A stretch of 64,000 bases of DNA from a virus. Its lineage: Duplodnaviria > Caudoviricetes. Below the pieces are notes generated by a model that saw only the letters and a program-made list of their open reading frames with translations, did not search any database and was not told the DNA's origin. Each line of letters starts with the position of its first letter. Within the stretch, counting starts at the first letter, position 1. The translations under genes were made by a program, and so were the position numbers. Below, piece by piece: positions 4,873-63,239 of this stretch. The DNA is taken from IMG/VR virus record IMGVR_UViG_3300029798_000001. One strand, written 5' to 3'.

Positions 4873-4903
4873 TGATTTTGAAATCTCAGCTAAGTATTTT
4901 AAT

Positions 4904-5691: not shown

Positions 5692-6174
5692 ATGGACCCT
5701 ACAAAAGAAAACACAGAATTAGATAAAATTCAAGCGCAATTCAACACAACCATGCTGAATAATACCGGTGCCTATACCGGAACAATTAGTACAGGCCTCA
5801 GCGAAGATACTATTACCTTGTCAAACACCGGTGGCGGATTTGCTTATCCTACCACCGTGATAGCAACTGGTGGCCCATATACTATTAGTGGCGGCACAGG
5901 TATTAGCCAGCCTTGGTATAGCACATCTGTCAGTCCAAAAATCAAGCTAGATGGCACCGGTGCTGACATCGAAGTCAACGGTTGGAGCTTGATTGATGCT
6001 ATCAAAAAGATCGAAGAACGCTTAAACATCCTAACTCCTAATACCAAATTAGAAGCGGAATGGGAAGAACTTCGTGCGCTAGGCGCCGAGTATCGTAAAC
6101 TAGAGCAACACATTAAGGACAAACAGGCTACATGGGACCGCTTGAAGGCCATGCCTCCACCTATAGTTGAATAA
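5692..6174 (+). CDS. hypothetical protein with Thr/Gly-rich N-terminus and coiled-coil C-terminus
   Basis: GGAG RBS; IEERLNILTPNTKLEAEWEELRALG. Confidence 0.65.
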   Translation: MDPTKENTELDKIQAQFNTTMLNNTGAYTGTISTGLSEDTITLSNTGGGFAYPTTVIATGGPYTISGGTGISQPWYSTSVSPKIKLDGTGADIEVNGWSLIDAIKKIEERLNILTPNTKLEAEWEELRALGAEYRKLEQHIKDKQATWDRLKAMPPPIVE

Positions 6175-6252
6175 TATACGCAGTTAACGGCAAAAACCTA
6201 TCAAAAATCATAGATTTTAGCCTTCCTGAACTAATAGGAACTAAGTATTTTA

Positions 6253-6535
6253 GAGAGTAGAAAAAACAACCAGGCTAACTTATGTTTAGCGGAGGATTAT
6301 AATCTTAGATCTACTCCACAACGGATGGCCAGTGCCGCAAAGCTGGTCCAGTTTTAAAGAGGACTTCGGAAATCCTCTTCATTGACAAATGGTATGAGCC
6401 CGGGTAAAGACAAAACCGCGCTTAGAGAGTATGGCACTGAGGCCCGAGGTCTTATTCTGTCTCCAGCTTAATCTCACCTGTCTTTGCACCCATCCTGGGA
6501 CTCCGCTGACACGCACAGTATTGCGATGAGGAGAC
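6253..6535 (+). ncRNA. candidate structured leader RNA ending in a k-turn that covers the RBS
   Basis: About 360-nt gap without a long ORF, after TAAGTA (6242-6247); several complementary pairs (see finding). Confidence 0.5.
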
Positions 6536-6539
6536 GAAG

Positions 6540-7196
6540 ATGAAACTTAAAAACTTTCTTATATCGTTGTTAGTAGTTGGTAGTACCGCAGTAGTGGCAG
6601 AAGAAGTACAAGTAGCACAAGTAACATTTACAGATCAAATGATTAACCAGGCCAACACATTTGTTGAGCGTACAGTTAATATAATTGCAACTCCATTCTT
6701 ATCCGACAAGGATGTTGATTGTTTAGCTCGTAATATATTTTACGAGAGCGGCGGAGAATCAACCGAAGGCAAAATTGCTGTAGGTATTGTTACCGTTAAT
6801 CGCTCCCAAGACCCACGCTTTGGTAAGAGTGTATGCGAAGTAGTTAAAGCTCGCACAGTCGTTACAAAGACTCGCGAGGTCCGAAAGACCGAATTAGTCA
6901 AGGTCGGCTATTTTGGCAGCCCAGAAAAAATAACAACAGTACACACAGCCGTAGAACAAGTTCCGGTGTGCCAGTTCTCATGGGTATGTGGCGGCTATGC
7001 CAAGCACCCTAAATCCGATGATGAACGCTGGATAGAAAGTAAAGAAATTGCTGAAAATATTGCACACGGTGACTATGCAGAGTACCGTCTTAAGTACGGT
7101 GGCGCTATGTACTTCCATGCTACTGCTATTCGACCAGTTTGGGCAAAAACCAAGAAGTTTGTAACTAAGACTGGGCACCACTTATTCTACGAATAG
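6540..7196 (+). CDS. cell wall hydrolase, SleB/Hydrolase_2 family
   Basis: Signal peptide; CLARNIFYESGGE...VTVNR...CQFSW...AMYFH...GHHLFY. Confidence 0.9.
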   Translation: MKLKNFLISLLVVGSTAVVAEEVQVAQVTFTDQMINQANTFVERTVNIIATPFLSDKDVDCLARNIFYESGGESTEGKIAVGIVTVNRSQDPRFGKSVCEVVKARTVVTKTREVRKTELVKVGYFGSPEKITTVHTAVEQVPVCQFSWVCGGYAKHPKSDDERWIESKEIAENIAHGDYAEYRLKYGGAMYFHATAIRPVWAKTKKFVTKTGHHLFYE

Positions 7197-7197
7197 G

Positions 7198-7226
7198 TTG
7201 ACCAACTATTCGCAATTTGTTATAAT
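7198..7226 (+). promoter_or_regulatory. sigma70-type promoter with extended -10
   Basis: TTGACC-N17-TATAAT. Confidence 0.8.
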
Positions 7227-7907: not shown

Positions 7908-8462
7908 ATGACCAACGATATACGCACCACTATTGACCTAGTAGAACAAACTACTCGTCCAACTAAACTAGAAACCACTCTATTGCCCTATACCCATACA
8001 GCGTTAGAGCCTGTAATGAGTGCAGAAACTATTGAATATCATTACGAGCACCTGGCGAAAGGTTATGCTAAACGTTATAACGCTGGCGAAGGCGATCCTG
8101 ATTTTAACCGTGCAGGGTCGTATCTCCATAACAAATTCTTTCCACAACTTCATGCACCAAAAGGAGCAAATCGCCCTAAAGGTGCTGTATTAGAACTAAT
8201 TGAAACTAACTTTAAAACATATGAAGACTTTAAAGATGAATTTAAAAAGGTGGCCATGGCCGTCGAGGGATCGGGCTGGATATATCTCAGCACACAGGGC
8301 ACGATTAAAACAATCAAGAATCATGCGGTTAGACTCGATATCTGTGTTCTCGTTGATTTCTGGGAGCATTCATGGGCGACGGACTACCAGTGGGACAAAG
8401 AACGATATCTAGATAACATCTGGAAAATAATTAACTGGGACATTTGCAATGAGAGAATATGA
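7908..8462 (+). CDS. Fe/Mn superoxide dismutase
   Basis: LPY...LEP, HYEHLAKGY, LHNKFF, GSGW and DFWEHSW motifs. Confidence 0.9.
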   Translation: MTNDIRTTIDLVEQTTRPTKLETTLLPYTHTALEPVMSAETIEYHYEHLAKGYAKRYNAGEGDPDFNRAGSYLHNKFFPQLHAPKGANRPKGAVLELIETNFKTYEDFKDEFKKVAMAVEGSGWIYLSTQGTIKTIKNHAVRLDICVLVDFWEHSWATDYQWDKERYLDNIWKIINWDICNERI

Positions 8463-9220
8463 ATTATCAAAAGATCTATGATAGTATCATAGAAAATGCT
8501 AAACAGCGTAACTGGACTAGAAAAACAGCACCAATTTATGTTGAGTATCATCACATTGTGCCTAGATCGTTAAACGGCTCAGATAGTGCCGATAATCTTG
8601 TATTCCTAACGTATCAAGAGCATTTTCTTGGCCACTGGCTATTGTACAAATCGTCTGTGGGGATTAATAAATCTAAAATGGCAAATGCTTGGTTTCGTAT
8701 GTGCCAAAGTAATGAATTTCAAATTAGAAACAGTAAGCATTATTCAAAAGCTAGACAAGCATTTTCGGACAACAATCCGTTCAAAGATCCTGAAATAATC
8801 AAAATAGTTAAACGTAGAATGACTGATAATAATCCGATGAAAAATCCTAAAAATGCGGCTAAAGTAAGCAAGGCACTAAAAGGAAAAATGGTAGGAGAAA
8901 AGAATGGCTTCTATAATCAAAAACATTCAATACAAACCCTAGAAAAAATATCCGGCATAAATCATTATACACAAAAAGAAGGTTATGTAGCACCTGTTGT
9001 ATCTGCTGAAACTCGAAAAAAGCATAGTTTAGCAAAAAAAGGAAAACCTAATCCTACGATGTCGCAACTTAATCGAGATAAAGCTGCTACTTGGAAAATA
9101 ACTACTCCAGCCGGCGAAGAACTTATTATTAAGAATATAAACAACTGGGCAACTGAGCAAAAGATTAGCCCACATTGGTTATATAGAAATAGACGCGGAT
9201 ATAAGGCGGTAAAATTATGA
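8459..9220 (+). mobile_element. free-standing HNH homing endonuclease with NUMOD-type DNA-binding repeats
   Basis: EYHHIVPRSLNGSDSADNLVFLTYQEHFLGH; NPM/NGFYNQKHS repeats; ATGA overlaps at both ends. Confidence 0.85.
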
Positions 9221-9549: not shown

Positions 9550-9613
9550 ACAAAATACCCAAAATAGTCTAGAATACACCCTCTGCTAAATACAGTATGA
9601 GGACTCAAATTCT

Positions 9614-15524: not shown

Positions 15525-16126
15525 ATGTAAGACTTAAAAATGATTTAATTTTCCAAGCCGGCGTATACTACAATGGCGAATTGCGTATGAATAATTATAA
15601 TCTACGCCTGTGGATGATTACTAATACGCACGAACCATCTAGTCACAATATAGCCTTTGATCGTATTAAATATTTTGTTTATTCTACTTTAGACAGTACT
15701 ATTTTTATCAACGAAGACAATCAAGAACAGTGCGAACAGTTACTCGATGCCGGACTTAAACTTACTACCATGCCCGGTGAACCAGTTGACCAACTCATTG
15801 GACTTATGTTATACTACAAACTTAATGCTATTACCGAAAGTCGTATGACCATAGTAGAAACAGAATTGTCTAGTGTCATGGGCGAAAATATGACCTACTT
15901 ACACAGTGAAAACGAAAATCCAGAAACTGTTATTCGTCCAGACTGGTGGAGTAGTCCGGATCTTGTACATTATAATACTGATTTAGTAGATTCTGATAAG
16001 GTAGTTACCATGCATCAAGTTAGTGTATGGAGAGATTTAGAGCTGGCTTGGCCCGACGAAGATATATCCGAATCCGGAAACACAGTTGTATTCGCAGATT
16101 TTAAGCGTAGTGATGATACAGAATAA
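15521..16126 (+). CDS. hypothetical protein
   Basis: ATGA-coupled ORF. Confidence 0.65.
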   Translation: MNVRLKNDLIFQAGVYYNGELRMNNYNLRLWMITNTHEPSSHNIAFDRIKYFVYSTLDSTIFINEDNQEQCEQLLDAGLKLTTMPGEPVDQLIGLMLYYKLNAITESRMTIVETELSSVMGENMTYLHSENENPETVIRPDWWSSPDLVHYNTDLVDSDKVVTMHQVSVWRDLELAWPDEDISESGNTVVFADFKRSDDTE

Positions 16127-16625
16127 ATTTGGTGAACTAATTTTTAATGAGTCGGATGTTTGTGATCTTGTCATGCAAGGTCGTGAGTTATCCATGCTCG
16201 ATGGTATGATTGTAGACGATACTGTAGATCTTTCTCGACTGCCAGATTTTTTAGATTCGATACCCAAGTTACAGCAACAACGATTACATTCTGCATCAGT
16301 TCCTGAATGGCATGCCCAACAGCAAGCAAACTGGCACATGCCCCAGGAATACAAAGATTTAGAAATCGCCGAATATATTCTAGGACTATGTGACAACGAA
16401 GCAGAATTGCAACGCTGTGGTGAAGAATTGTTGTTGTATCAAGAGCGTGGGTTGTTTGATTTATTGCGTTATTTAAAATATCTAGTTGATATCATGACCC
16501 AAAATCAAATAATTTGGGGAGTTGGTAGAGGTAGTAGTGTAGCAAGTTTTGTACTGTATAAATTGAGTGTGCATCGAATTGACAGCCTTTTCTATAATTT
16601 AGACATACACGAATTCTTACGATAA
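16113..16625 (+). CDS. truncated DNA polymerase III alpha (DnaE)-like protein
   Basis: WGVGRGSSVASFVLYKLSVHRID resembles DnaE GPGRGSAAGSLVAY.LGIT.ID; ends before the catalytic Asp motif. Confidence 0.75.
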   Translation: MIQNKFGELIFNESDVCDLVMQGRELSMLDGMIVDDTVDLSRLPDFLDSIPKLQQQRLHSASVPEWHAQQQANWHMPQEYKDLEIAEYILGLCDNEAELQRCGEELLLYQERGLFDLLRYLKYLVDIMTQNQIIWGVGRGSSVASFVLYKLSVHRIDSLFYNLDIHEFLR

Positions 16626-40629: not shown

Positions 40630-41067
40630 ATGACAACTTATCAACTCTCTTGCACGATTGGATCCACCGACACCACCGCTAAACTTGGCCTAGAAATATG
40701 GCTTGATACAAATCAATTATATAATACAGATCATGTAACAGATGTCAGTTTACCGTTGACATTTGATTTAGATGAGGACGAGGCTGCTCACGAACTACGA
40801 TTTGTAATGAAAAATAAAACTGCAGAGCATACACAAATTAACGAAACTGGTGATATTATATCCGATGCGAGACTTACAATTTCCGATCTAGCATTTGATG
40901 AAATTGCGCTGGGGCAACTGTTTATTGATCTAGCAGTATACACCCACGATTTTAATGGCACTCAAGCAGAAGCTCAAACTAAATTCTACGGTGAGATGGG
41001 CTGTAATGGCTCCGTAAGTTTAAAATTTACTAGCCCAATTTATCTATGGCTTTTAGAGCACCTGTGA
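40630..41067 (+). CDS. hypothetical protein
   Basis: C-terminus GCNGSVSLKFTSPIYLWLLEHL. Confidence 0.65.
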   Translation: MTTYQLSCTIGSTDTTAKLGLEIWLDTNQLYNTDHVTDVSLPLTFDLDEDEAAHELRFVMKNKTAEHTQINETGDIISDARLTISDLAFDEIALGQLFIDLAVYTHDFNGTQAEAQTKFYGEMGCNGSVSLKFTSPIYLWLLEHL

Positions 41068-43090: not shown

Positions 43091-46000
43091 ATGAATATTC
43101 AAGAATTGGATTCCTACAACCTTGGCGATGCTGTTAAGTTTAACAAGAAGTTAAACCCTCGGCTGTGGGGCAAAGACGAACATTTACTGCCGGAAGTGCG
43201 CGATCATCTATTAAAAATAGCCGATGATTTCCGCGAGTTCCTTGGAGTGACCGACCTACAACTAAAAGATATTACTATAAGTGGTTCAAATGCTGCCTAC
43301 ACCTATACTCCACATTCCGACATTGATCTACATTTAGTTGTAGATTTACCCGAAGCAGATGGGTCGGAAGTTTACCGTGAATTATTCGATGCCAAAAAGT
43401 ACCAATATAATGATATGCACCATATTAAAATTGGTGGATATGACATTGAAGTGTATGTACAAGATGCTAACAAGCCACATCGCAGTCAAGGTATCTATTC
43501 TATATTAAACAACCGATGGGTCGATGTACCTAAGCGTCGTCGACCCGAAGTAGATGACATCAGTATACGCAGTAAGTATGAAGATTTAAACCATCGTATT
43601 GAAGACGCGATTAAATCTAATAACCCCGACACAATAGGTGCATTGGCAAAAAAGATCAGCGATCTAAGACAAGCGGGCCTAGATGAACATGGCGAGTTTG
43701 GTCCAGAAAATCTAGCATTTAAAATGTTGCGTAGCCAGGGCATCATACAAAAATTATACGATGCTCGCAATGCCGCCAAAGATCACGAACTAAGTCTTAA
43801 AGAAAAAGCACCTCCAACAAGAGTTACATATGGATTTAAGACTCCGACTGTGGTAGAAGATGTTGGCATGTCGTGGGATGGCGTTAGCCCTAGTACTAAG
43901 ATGTTCCTAAGTGAAACAGAGTCAGACGAAGAAATACTTAAAGACTTTATTGAATTTTGCGTTAAAGAATTAAAAATTGAAAAGATGCCCGCGATCAAGT
44001 TGCGTAAAGATCCGCAATGGCCAGTGGTACACAAAACATTTGGTCGTTATATAAATGACCGGCACTTATTAGAAGTAGCCTGGGGTTCCCGCCATATTAT
44101 GGATGTACTACGCACTGTAGCCCACGAACTTACACATCGTCATCAACACGAGCGTGATGGCAACCGCATGGGACCCGAAGCTGGTGAAACTGGTAGTCCA
44201 TGGGAAAACGAAGCCAATGCCCGTGCCGGCGTACTAATGCGTGACTATGCTAGACTACATCCTGACTATTTTGCTGTAGGACAAGCCCAAGGCTTACACG
44301 CCGATGAGGTAACAGAAGCTTCTGTTATACAAAATCGTTTGCCGCCTAAGTTGGTAATAGGCGGCTATACATTTGTTCTTAATCCAACTACCCGCAATGT
44401 TACTGTTACTCATGGTGGCAAACCTTTTACTACCTACCATTATACTGGACTTAACAACTACGAATCATATGCAGATATTGCTTATCGTAAAATAGATCAA
44501 ACCAAATCAAGCGAGTTGGCAGATATAGCTAAAAGAGATCGTGCCAGCCCCACAGCGGCTCAACGTAGTTTTGAATACCCAACTGATTCCAGATATCAAG
44601 TTGCCATGCCCAATCAAGATCTTGACCAACTATATCGTCAGCACGATCAAGCAACAGCGCAACACGGAATCGTGGGCGGCATTACAGATTTTGGCAAATA
44701 CAGTTCCTTGGCCAAACGACGTAGACAGGCCGCACAAGCACAGGCCGACGAAGTTAAAGAAGCCAATCCAAATCAACAGTTGTCTTTGTATCGACCTGAT
44801 GGCACCACATACCGTGGTGAAAAAATGCCAGTGTTAGATCCAAACGATTTCCACAGTGACACCAATCCTCGAAAGCGTGTTGATCAAGTTACCCATCAAG
44901 ACTTAGCCAACAGGACTGCACCTGACCTGGTGGATCCTATTGAGCGGACTGAACGCAAGATTGACTTGGACCGATTAAAAAATGTAATTCGTGCCAACAT
45001 GAAAGATCTACTGTCAACTGAAACAGCAGTATTAAACATGCGTTACTGGAAAGACTTGACCTTGGAACAAACTGCACAAGCTCTGGGACTCACTCCTGAG
45101 CGTGTAAGACAAATAGAAGCCAAGGCCTTGAGAAAATTGCGGCATTTTTCCAAGAGCGATCAATTAAAACCGTTTGTAGAACCGCGGCTCACATGGCCAG
45201 GCATAAAAGAAGCTGTGGGCTACATTCCTACCGCGGCAGAAAAAAATGATCCTAGATTCAGCATGGCACTTACACAGGATATCCGTCCAGGACAACTAGG
45301 CAAAGAAGCAAACAAATTAAAATTAAAAACCAACAGTCAAGGCCAGCCGCAGATAGCTAATCCCAATGGCCTGTTTGAGAAATTAGCACTAGAGTTAGCA
45401 CAATTTAAAACGGTATCAGAGTCAGTAGAACAGTTAGACGAAGTGCGTATGGCTCCTAGCAACCTAATGCAGTGGGCCACCAGTCCAGAAGCCAAAGGCG
45501 TCCGTGCTGGTTTTGAAGCAGAGTTAATTTTCCGTGACACACAGCGTGATGATGACGAAGACTATGAAATGGAACCCGACTATGATCAAGATGAGCGTTG
45601 CCGTAGTATCAGTCAAGTAATAGACTTTTTTGGCGGTGGTGACTATGGCATGAGTAGTCGTGCATTAAACCGATTGCAGGAACAACTAGATGAAGCCTAC
45701 ATGGAGTGGCTTGATGAACAAATGATCTCTGACTTCAAACACGAAGCCGAAGATTTAATTCGTAAAGTATTAGTTGACGAAGGCGATTGGGATCTTGACA
45801 ACGAAATACAAAAGCAGTTGGCATTGATAGACGACCTAACAGATGACCAAATGAATGCTATTATACAAGCTGGCGAGCGGGCTCCTAAGTTTACAAGCAG
45901 TAAAGAAAAGGTATTATACGCAGAAGCTAATCCGTTATATGAAAAGTATTTAGATGCACAAGAAGAAGCCGAAGACCTGTTAGATGAGTTAGTTCAAGAT

Positions 46001-62381: not shown

Positions 62382-63239
62382 ACCGACTCGTGTTATTTCA
62401 CTGCATACCCTGTGTTGCAAAAAGAAATCGAAGCTGGTACAATGTCTTGGTCGAAAGAAATTGCGGTACAATTATATAACTCTATTGCCGACCAAGTTAA
62501 TGATAGCTTTCCAGGATTTATGGAACAAGCATTTCATGTACCTAGAGAAATGGGCGAAGTGATCAAAGGTGGGCGAGAGATTGTCGCAAGTAAAGGGCTG
62601 TTTATTACCAAGAAGCGGTATGCTGTATTGTATTATGATAAAGAAAATAAGCGTGTAGATACCCACGGTAGTCCTGGTAAAGTAAAAGCCATGGGCCTTG
62701 ATTTAAAAAGATCAGATACTCCCAAGGTTATTCAAGAATTTTTAAGCGAGATTCTCGACGAGGTACTCACAGGCTCCACCAGAGATCAGGTTATTGAAAA
62801 GATCCGCGAATTTAAGTATATTTTTAAAGAGAGGCCGGGTTGGGAGAAGGGTAGTCCTAAGCGTGTAAACAACTTAACCAAATATGGTAAGGAAGAAGAA
62901 AGATTAGGCAAAGCCAATATGCCAGGACATGTCCGTGCTGCACTTAATTGGAATAATCTTCGCAGGATGAATGGCGACAAATATAGTTTACAGATTGTTG
63001 ATGGCATGAAAACAATTGTATGTAAACTAAAATCTAATCCACTTGGCTGGACTAGCATTGGTTACCCTACTGACGAAACACATTTGCCACAATGGTTTAA
63101 AGAGTTGCCGTTTGATGACACCGAAATGGAAGCCACTGTAGTTGATCAAAAGCTAGACAATTTATTAAGTGTATTAGAATGGGACTTGGCCAGTGCTACT
63201 AACACTAAAAATATTTTTCAAACATTGTTCGAGTGGTAA
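62256..63239 (+). CDS. polB: C-intein (42 aa) fused to DNA polymerase B C-terminal part
   Basis: VYDLSIE...ILVHN then TDSCYF (restores YGDTDS); KKRYA; GLDLKRSDTP. Confidence 0.95.
   Translation: MDITRTTVKSIDCLGEVDDYVYDLSIEDQDPYFFANDILVHNTDSCYFTAYPVLQKEIEAGTMSWSKEIAVQLYNSIADQVNDSFPGFMEQAFHVPREMGEVIKGGREIVASKGLFITKKRYAVLYYDKENKRVDTHGSPGKVKAMGLDLKRSDTPKVIQEFLSEILDEVLTGSTRDQVIEKIREFKYIFKERPGWEKGSPKRVNNLTKYGKEEERLGKANMPGHVRAALNWNNLRRMNGDKYSLQIVDGMKTIVCKLKSNPLGWTSIGYPTDETHLPQWFKELPFDDTEMEATVVDQKLDNLLSVLEWDLASATNTKNIFQTLFEW

Follow-up and report, generated by a model that had tools for sequence, protein, structure and literature searches.

A structured leader RNA ending at the Shine-Dalgarno sequence of cell-wall hydrolase genes in freshwater giant phages

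The window analyzed here, by which we mean the whole stretch of 64,000 nucleotides taken from a tailed virus (Duplodnaviria; Caudoviricetes; IMG/VR record IMGVR_UViG_3300029798_000001), is gene-dense and phage-like, with 89% of it coding according to simple ORF tiling. Between an ORF of 160 aa and an ORF of 218 aa it leaves a gap of 365 nt (6175-6539), which raises the question of what this gap contains and how it bears on the cell-wall hydrolase gene that follows. A sequence-only reading of the locus had proposed a large structured leader that ends in a canonical kink-turn (k-turn), occludes the hydrolase gene's ribosome-binding site and acts as an unrecognized switch. Comparison of homologs gives a different picture of the 3' end: the gap holds a genuine conserved structured RNA, which closes on the Shine-Dalgarno (SD) sequence with a pseudoknot.

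The hydrolase gene and its surroundings

The features immediately downstream of the gap are the following.

6528-6542, + strand: SD sequence GAGGAG (6528-6533) and start codon ATG (6540), from the sequence
6540-7196, + strand: gene for an exported cell-wall hydrolase of 218 aa, Hydrolase_2 / SleB-CwlJ type, from Pfam and PHROG

The 218-aa ORF matches Pfam family PF07486 (E = 1.3e-17) as well as PHROG endolysin families, and its translation begins with an N-terminal signal peptide; the hydrolases of this group have either such a peptide or a membrane segment at the N terminus and are thus predicted to be exported. The 160-aa ORF 5' of the gap gave no family match. When the hydrolase was compared with cultured phages by tblastn, the nearest relatives were all below 35% identity. 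The motifs underlying the sequence-only reading lie where it had placed them (TAAGTA at 6242, GAGTAGA at 6255 with TCTACTC at 6310, the k-turn string at 6501-6533, GAGGAG at 6528-6533 and ATG at 6540), and we keep its assignment of GAGGAG as the SD sequence of the hydrolase start codon.

Directly 3' of the hydrolase gene, a near-consensus sigma70-type promoter (7198-7226; TTGACC-17-TATAAT, extended by TG and matching at 11 of 12) precedes a basic protein of 131 aa to which no function is assigned (phrog_27048). In L001, L003 and L004 this protein likewise comes after the hydrolase. Further downstream, an Fe/Mn superoxide dismutase gene (7908-8462) has a stop codon that overlaps the start of an HNH/NUMOD3 homing-endonuclease gene (8459-9220).

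A family of related leaders

The hydrolase protein, which was used first as a query, led to four viral contigs of 28 to 344 kb, all with a similar gap of 330-395 nt and with a different upstream gene. A 17-base pattern from the gap retrieved 38 stretches of viral contigs, 33 of them distinct homologs, and a 21-base pattern retrieved at least 120 metagenome stretches, many of freshwater lake origin. By nhmmer, the element was recognized in at least 158 loci on viral and lake-metagenome contigs, with at least 119 full-length copies, at least 93 of which are distinct; the divergent copies L206 and L180 were added by searching with the protein, which does not depend on the RNA pattern. A pattern scan of genome contigs returned at least 120 stretches, and the matches listed were all chance matches by nhmmer. 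Blastn of the leader against 50,697 records of cultured phages gave no match.

Among the matches listed, all 136 readable downstream ORFs at the aligned start codon fit the hydrolase profile, and this start codon is TTG in 74 homologs, ATG in 54 and GTG in 11, so that weak codons (TTG or GTG) account for 85 of 139. The distance from the RNA to the start codon is fixed in every copy; the upstream gene is not constant among loci. Two hydrolase subfamilies, with a mutual protein identity of 34-38%, carry the leader, which in the alignments is conserved far above the level of the hydrolase protein, and the next-closest hydrolase clades (45-53% identity) have ordinary short leaders of ~130 nt. The leader occurs once in the window.

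Searches of the whole window against Rfam 15 gave no match at gathering thresholds, the unmatched families including T-box, glmS, ydaO, c-di-GMP-I/II, group I introns, GOLLD and ROOL, and permissive scans of the leaders of the window, L035 and L180 returned only noise (E ≥ 0.3, families inconsistent). The RNA is therefore unrecognized at either threshold, as the sequence-only reading had supposed, and a full-text literature search found no description of it. At the level of sequence, these searches establish an uncatalogued family of leaders of ~300 nt, positioned, among the matches listed, exclusively 5' of hydrolase genes in freshwater giant phages.

Covariation supports a multi-domain fold

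The minimum free energy of 6175-6545, folded as a single sequence, is at the level of shuffled sequences (z = -0.09), and its stability is thus not unusual; given this and the lack of an Rfam match, the case for an RNA structure is built on the comparison of relatives and not on thermodynamics. We used a structure model of 74 pairs in 16 helices, with pairs counted on MAFFT alignments and 500 shuffles as the control. In an alignment of 68 diverse copies less than 93% identical to one another (alignment A4), 90.4% of cells were paired (84.1% in shuffles), 37 of the 74 pairs had changed on both sides (21.0±1.9 in shuffles), 312 cells had changed on both sides (105 in shuffles), and the covariation score was 0.199 (0.100 in shuffles). 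None of the 500 shuffles attained any of the observed pairing or covariation values, and sliding the partners by 1-3 columns lowered the score to 0.04-0.06. Compensatory changes are present in both pseudoknots of the model (PK1 and S1/S2, described below). Conserved, covarying structure is thus present in the orthologous leaders. The 5' domain and the core comprise the following elements.

6255-6316, + strand: helix PA (6255-6261 / 6310-6316) around hairpin PA3 (6274-6277 / 6287-6290), an accessory 5' domain, from covariation
6322-6347, + strand: hairpin PB (6328-6333 / 6342-6347) with pseudoknot PK1 (loop CCG 6335-6337 / 5' flank CGG 6322-6324), from covariation
6357-6379, + strand: hairpin PC, AAGAGGA-C(UUCG)G-AAA-UCCUCUU, 99% paired, with covariation in L206 and L180
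6380-6486, + strand: long-range helix PD, CAUUGACA (6380-6387) with UGUCnnUG (6479-6486), which closes a multi-branch core, from covariation
6488-6500, + strand: hairpin PF, ACCCA-UCC-UGGGA, 97% paired, 5 of 5 pairs compensated

Four local pairings that had been picked out from the window alone are confirmed in these helices. GAGTAGA/TCTACTC, which forms PA, is 96% paired in the 68 copies, with compensatory changes at 4 of 7 pairs, and GCTAA/TTAGC survives as the GCTA/TAGC of PA3 (98% paired, G-C replaced by A-U in 20 copies). CCAG/CTGG is part of the PB stem GCCAGT/GCTGGT, which is paired in 98% and compensated at 5 of 6 pairs; its loop pairing, PK1, is 99% paired, with C-G replaced by G-C in L133 and L095 and G-C by A-U in L127. 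One locus (L048:764-1126, - strand) has an insertion of ~60 nt in place of PB, which contains a tRNA T-arm-like string, GGTTCGATTC. Hairpin PC, the proposed AGAGGA/TCCTCT pairing, is invariant among the copies found by pattern, partly because the search pattern lies inside it; in the copies found independently through the protein it is compensated, with A-U changed to U-G in L206, and G-C to A-U and A-U to U-A in L180.

PD is 95.5% paired in the 68 copies, with two U-U mismatches in the window copy, and encloses PE, PH and a variable G-poor linker. In PE (6395-6399 / 6420-6424 plus 6401-6403 / 6416-6418) all 8 of 8 pairs are compensated. PH (6433-6436 / 6457-6460 plus 6439-6444 / 6448-6453) is 97% paired at its tip; its base is GGCA/UGUC, and another subtype has GC./.GC instead. 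The long-range pairings of the sequence-only reading fared less well than its local ones. AAAGACA/TGTCTTT is contradicted by the alignment, as its central pairs form in only ~10-15% of copies and the partner of TGTC is GACA at 6384-6387. GGATG/CATCC is compatible with ~93% of copies only because both strings are conserved, and it does no better than shuffles and lacks covariation; moreover, G6323 and G6324 belong to the covarying PK1, which competes with it, and at most it might form as an alternative state.

PF has a conserved, anti-SD-like loop, AUCCU, which complements the AGGA of the SD sequence (weak to no covariation) and also GGAU at 6323-6326 (no covariation). Several further candidate contacts were rejected. 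the anti-anti-SD pairing of CGGAU (6322) with AUCCG (6500-6505) is not compensated and is missing where the 5' domain is absent; a pairing of the PE-loop GGAGA with UCUCC of the linker is inconsistent across subtypes; and for an 11-nt tetraloop receptor made of CUAAG (6240) and UAUGG (6430), the first base of CUAAG can be C, A or G and nothing covaries with it, for which a promoter motif is the better explanation. A group I intron reading of GAGAGUAGA and AGAUCUACUCC, which we take to resemble the R and S elements of such introns, fails on the wrong order of domains and the lack of an Rfam group I match.

At least seven natural variants (among L020, L034, L060, L084, L097, L108, L134, L206 and L180) are without PA, PB and PK1 but have everything from PC through the SD sequence, and the conserved core therefore measures ~190 nt.

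Covariation supports a pseudoknot and not a kink-turn in the 3' module

The leader ends in a compact module that includes the SD sequence.

6501-6533, + strand: 3' module, in which closing helix PSD, (C)UCC 6501-6504 / GGA(G) 6530-6533, surrounds the H-type pseudoknot S1/S2, the latter from covariation

S1 (GCUG 6505-6508 / CAGU 6516-6519) is Watson-Crick paired in 68 of 68 copies, occurs as GCUG/CAGU, GGUG/CACU or GCCG/CGGU, and has two covarying pairs: at 6506/6518, 48 copies have C-G and 20 have G-C, none being mismatched, and 6507/6517 changes from U-A to C-G or G-C in 3 copies. G6508 is paired with C6516 in all 68 copies. In S2 (6511-6515 / 6522-6526), 5 of 5 pairs are compensated. S1 and S2 are thus two interleaved helices, both kept in evolution, which is the arrangement that defines an H-type pseudoknot; with only 2 nt between them on the 3' side, they might be alternative states rather than co-formed. 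The putative helix PSD comprises 3-4 bp, the proportions of copies in which its three inner pairs can form are 97%, 88% and 100%, and its lack of covariation is expected, as one of its strands is the SD sequence.

The same segment had been read as a canonical k-turn, with CUCC/GGAG as C-stem, GCU (6505-6507) as bulge and sheared pairs of G6508-A6509 with G6528-A6529, that would be bound by an L7Ae-family protein or serve as the hinge of a riboswitch while sequestering the ribosome-binding site. The string at 6501-6533 can indeed be written as the C-stem, 3-nt bulge and GA/AG pairs of a Kt-7-type kink-turn and is compatible with a simple k-turn pattern, the 5' GA of that reading is kept in 91 of 93 distinct copies, and 79 of 93 have A as the nucleotide directly preceding GGAG. 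The homologs nevertheless contradict it at both diagnostic positions. The supposed unpaired bulge, G6505-U6507, is paired with A6517-U6519 of the supposed loop, and the first G of the supposed tandem G-A/A-G pairs is Watson-Crick paired with the loop as well, both in every one of the 68 copies; conservation is lacking at the 3' GA, since the dinucleotide before GGAG is GA in just 31 of the 93 distinct copies, AA in 46, CG in 10 and TG, CA or AG in 6. Patterns of this kind also come up by chance, the + strand of the window containing 6 instances of a generic hairpin k-turn pattern, against 0-4 per shuffle, and an unsystematic look noticed no L7Ae-like gene. From the bulge-loop pairing, the unconserved 3' GA and the chance frequency of the pattern, we conclude that the module is an H-type pseudoknot, and we regard a k-turn here as very improbable. 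Other strings in the window that fit the loose pattern lie at 1872-1907, 16108-16139, 40878-40905, 43945-43984 and 62986-63013.

Promoter-like elements upstream of the RNA

Three elements precede PA.

6173-6178, + strand: TAATAT, which may be the -10 box of a sigma70-type promoter upstream of the RNA, weak in the window, from alignment A2
6185-6240, + strand: upstream part of the leader, conserved (TTAAYGGYAAAAA...ATCAAAA) and containing the variable hairpin P1 (~6223-6238) just 5' of the late-type motif, from alignments A1 and A2
6241-6248, + strand: CTAAGTAT, nearly invariant, with the look of a T4-type late promoter (TAAATA/TAAGTA class), from alignment A4

Most relatives have a clear TTGACA-17-TATAAT ~70 nt 5' of CTAAGTAT; the window has only TAATAT there, and a promoter scan found no consensus sigma70-type promoter at this place in the window. 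The TAAGTA of CTAAGTAT is invariant in 68 of 68 copies, and no covarying RNA partner of CTAAGTAT was found. Among hexamers in the 60 nt before the ORFs of related loci, TAAATA shows the highest enrichment (19-fold), and TAAGTA is enriched 5.4-fold. In the window, these hexamers stand a few to ~40 nt before many start codons (TAAATA, e.g., at 9587, 33984, 35285, 42085, 43079, 49648 and 61291; TAAGTA at 4891, 7897, 16623, 26553 and 28807) and look like a T4-type late-promoter consensus of this phage group. In T4, late promoters consist of a TATA-type box placed one helical turn 5' of the start (PMC2988020), which the motif resembles. We infer a late-type promoter at 6241-6248, with a transcript start near 6253, two bases before PA.

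The segment at 6185-6240 would then be present only in transcripts started upstream. It is an A-rich stretch of ~60 nt (UUAAYGGYAAAAA..AUCAAAA), seen in the window, L013, L035 and others between the sigma70-type promoter and the late-type motif, and could be an early-only part of the leader or a separate small RNA. The stem sequence of P1 varies among homologs, and the hairpin can be folded in each. A pairing of AUGGUA/ACGGCA in this early-only segment with the PB loop was rejected, being uncompensated in L127, L133 and L095, with the motif persisting where PB is absent.

Proposed masking of the Shine-Dalgarno sequence

The UCC adjoining S1 is conserved and complementary to the GGA of the SD sequence. 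The sequestration proposed by the sequence-only reading therefore holds in the model insofar as the SD sequence is paired with CUCC/UCC; the pairing is the closing helix of a pseudoknot and not the C-stem of a k-turn. In nested folding, GGAG has a mean predicted pairing probability of 0.81 across the 3' modules of the 68 homologs versus 0.48 for 24 other SD sequences of the window; that of the window copy itself, 0.68, is within the range of the other genes. The SD sequence can pair both with UCC at 6502-6504 and with UCCU of the PF loop at 6493-6496, with weak to no covariation, and no conserved alternative fold was found in the homolog comparison.

As in riboswitches, a covarying structured domain occupies the 5' UTR, here of a single gene family. 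The model has three parts: a 5' accessory domain (PA, and PB with PK1), a core (PC and the PD-closed multi-branch region) and the 3' module (PF, S1/S2 and PSD). We propose that the 3' module would limit binding of the 30S subunit at the hydrolase SD sequence and that the ~190-nt core may sense an effector, whether a small molecule, an ion, or a phage or host protein, which would stabilize or open the 3' module, such that the exported hydrolase would be made only at the right time or dose; untimely synthesis of an exported hydrolase could be harmful. Our main reading, to which we assign a probability of roughly 60%, is that the leader is a new cis-acting translational control RNA that gates the hydrolase, riboswitch-like or protein-responsive, with the core as its sensor. 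Of the unrecognized switch envisaged from the window alone, a large, structured, uncatalogued leader ending at the SD sequence and plausibly acting as a translational switch is retained, and the k-turn is not.

Alternative explanations

The masking of the SD sequence invites comparison with bacteriophage T4, in which the SD sequence of the lysozyme gene is masked by mRNA structure in early transcripts, preventing premature lysis (Uzan & Miller 2010, PMC3014915). A ligand-independent device of this kind would damp translation constitutively or affect mRNA stability, with timing set by promoter choice alone. T4 genes e, soc, 49 and I-TevI all have a TIR masked by mRNA structure in early transcripts (PMC3014915), and the leader shares with them a lysis-type hydrolase mRNA (as in gene e), an SD sequence predicted to lie in an intramolecular helix, and a T4-like late-promoter motif with an early-type promoter upstream; most relatives have both of these promoter-like elements 5' of the RNA. 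A structured 5' end beginning 2 nt past the inferred late start could also shield the mRNA. In T4 gene e, however, the mask is a single simple stem, and late transcripts escape it because its 5' strand lies upstream of where they start, whereas here the late-type motif (6241-6248) lies ~290 nt 5' of the SD sequence and all partners of the SD region (6493-6504) are 3' of that motif, and late transcripts would therefore retain the masking structure. No conserved complementarity was found between the early-only segment and the TIR, and a ~300-nt multi-domain fold with a ~190-nt core, near-invariant unpaired stretches and two pseudoknots goes far beyond the needs of a masking hairpin. The position of the masking elements 3' of the putative late start, together with an RNA over-elaborate for masking, suggests a regulated device, and we consider the ligand-independent alternative unlikely.

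More improbable still is an RNA that functions mainly by itself, as a ribozyme, a processed trans-acting RNA or a decoy, and is merely co-transcribed with the hydrolase. The leader is better conserved in sequence than the adjacent protein, has a weak terminator-like hairpin at 6438-6454, and resembles in size and pseudoknot content the ornate phage RNAs GOLLD and ROOL (PMC12286853). Like GOLLD, ROOL and OLE, it is a large and intricate RNA of phage or environmental origin first seen in lake metagenomes, but those RNAs are stand-alone, span 580-800 nt and are not fused to an SD sequence, unlike this mRNA leader of ~300 nt (PMC12286853). Linkage to one gene family in all 136 cases among the matches listed, inclusion of the SD sequence in the 3' module, a single copy in the window and the absence of a match to any known ribozyme or RNA family in Rfam speak against autonomy, and the U-rich tail of PH pairs, extending the hairpin, which is not expected of a terminator. 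As for conservation due to DNA-level signals such as promoters or binding sites of regulators, CTAAGTAT and the TTGACA/TATAAT boxes upstream probably are such signals; for 6255-6533, the covariation result refutes this explanation, given that compensatory double substitutions run to dozens, that G-U pairs are strand-specific and that hairpins vary in length with their pairing kept, and we accord it next to no probability.

The gating RNA that we favor can also be set beside known riboswitches. The preQ1-II and SAM-II/SAM-V classes are translational riboswitches in which an H-type pseudoknot abuts or includes the SD sequence, and the leader resembles them in being a conserved element of the 5' UTR of one gene family with a compact covarying pseudoknot at the SD sequence; it differs in being 3 to 6 times larger, without a match in Rfam and, so far, confined to phages. 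The ydaO (c-di-AMP) riboswitch often lies 5' of cell-wall hydrolase genes in bacteria, and the likeness extends to a structured leader before peptidoglycan hydrolase genes. Unlike ydaO, to which cmscan found no match, the leader has another architecture with no evident pseudo-two-fold symmetry, and its carriers are phages rather than bacteria. To our knowledge, structured leaders this large and this well supported by covariation are rare, and we know of only a few phage-specific riboswitch-like RNAs, none of which controls a lysis-type enzyme.

Implications for giant phages of freshwater

The family is common in lake metagenomes and missing from Rfam, and it could enter annotation pipelines straightaway. 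A bolder version of the gating proposal, which we hold only tentatively and at well below even odds, is that the leaders constitute a new and unusually large orphan riboswitch or sensor class exclusive to giant freshwater phages, in which the core would bind a metabolite, a second messenger, or a phage or host factor signaling the condition of the infected cell, and the pseudoknot holding the SD sequence would time synthesis of the exported hydrolase. If true, this would amount to an RNA-level clock for lysis or cell-wall remodeling. Should the core sense a signal, the leader would show how uncultured giant phages time the production of an exported hydrolase that is dangerous to make, and structural work would gain a new RNA fold; in the ligand-independent case, the leader would still extend the masking principle of T4 lysozyme to a much more elaborate RNA device.
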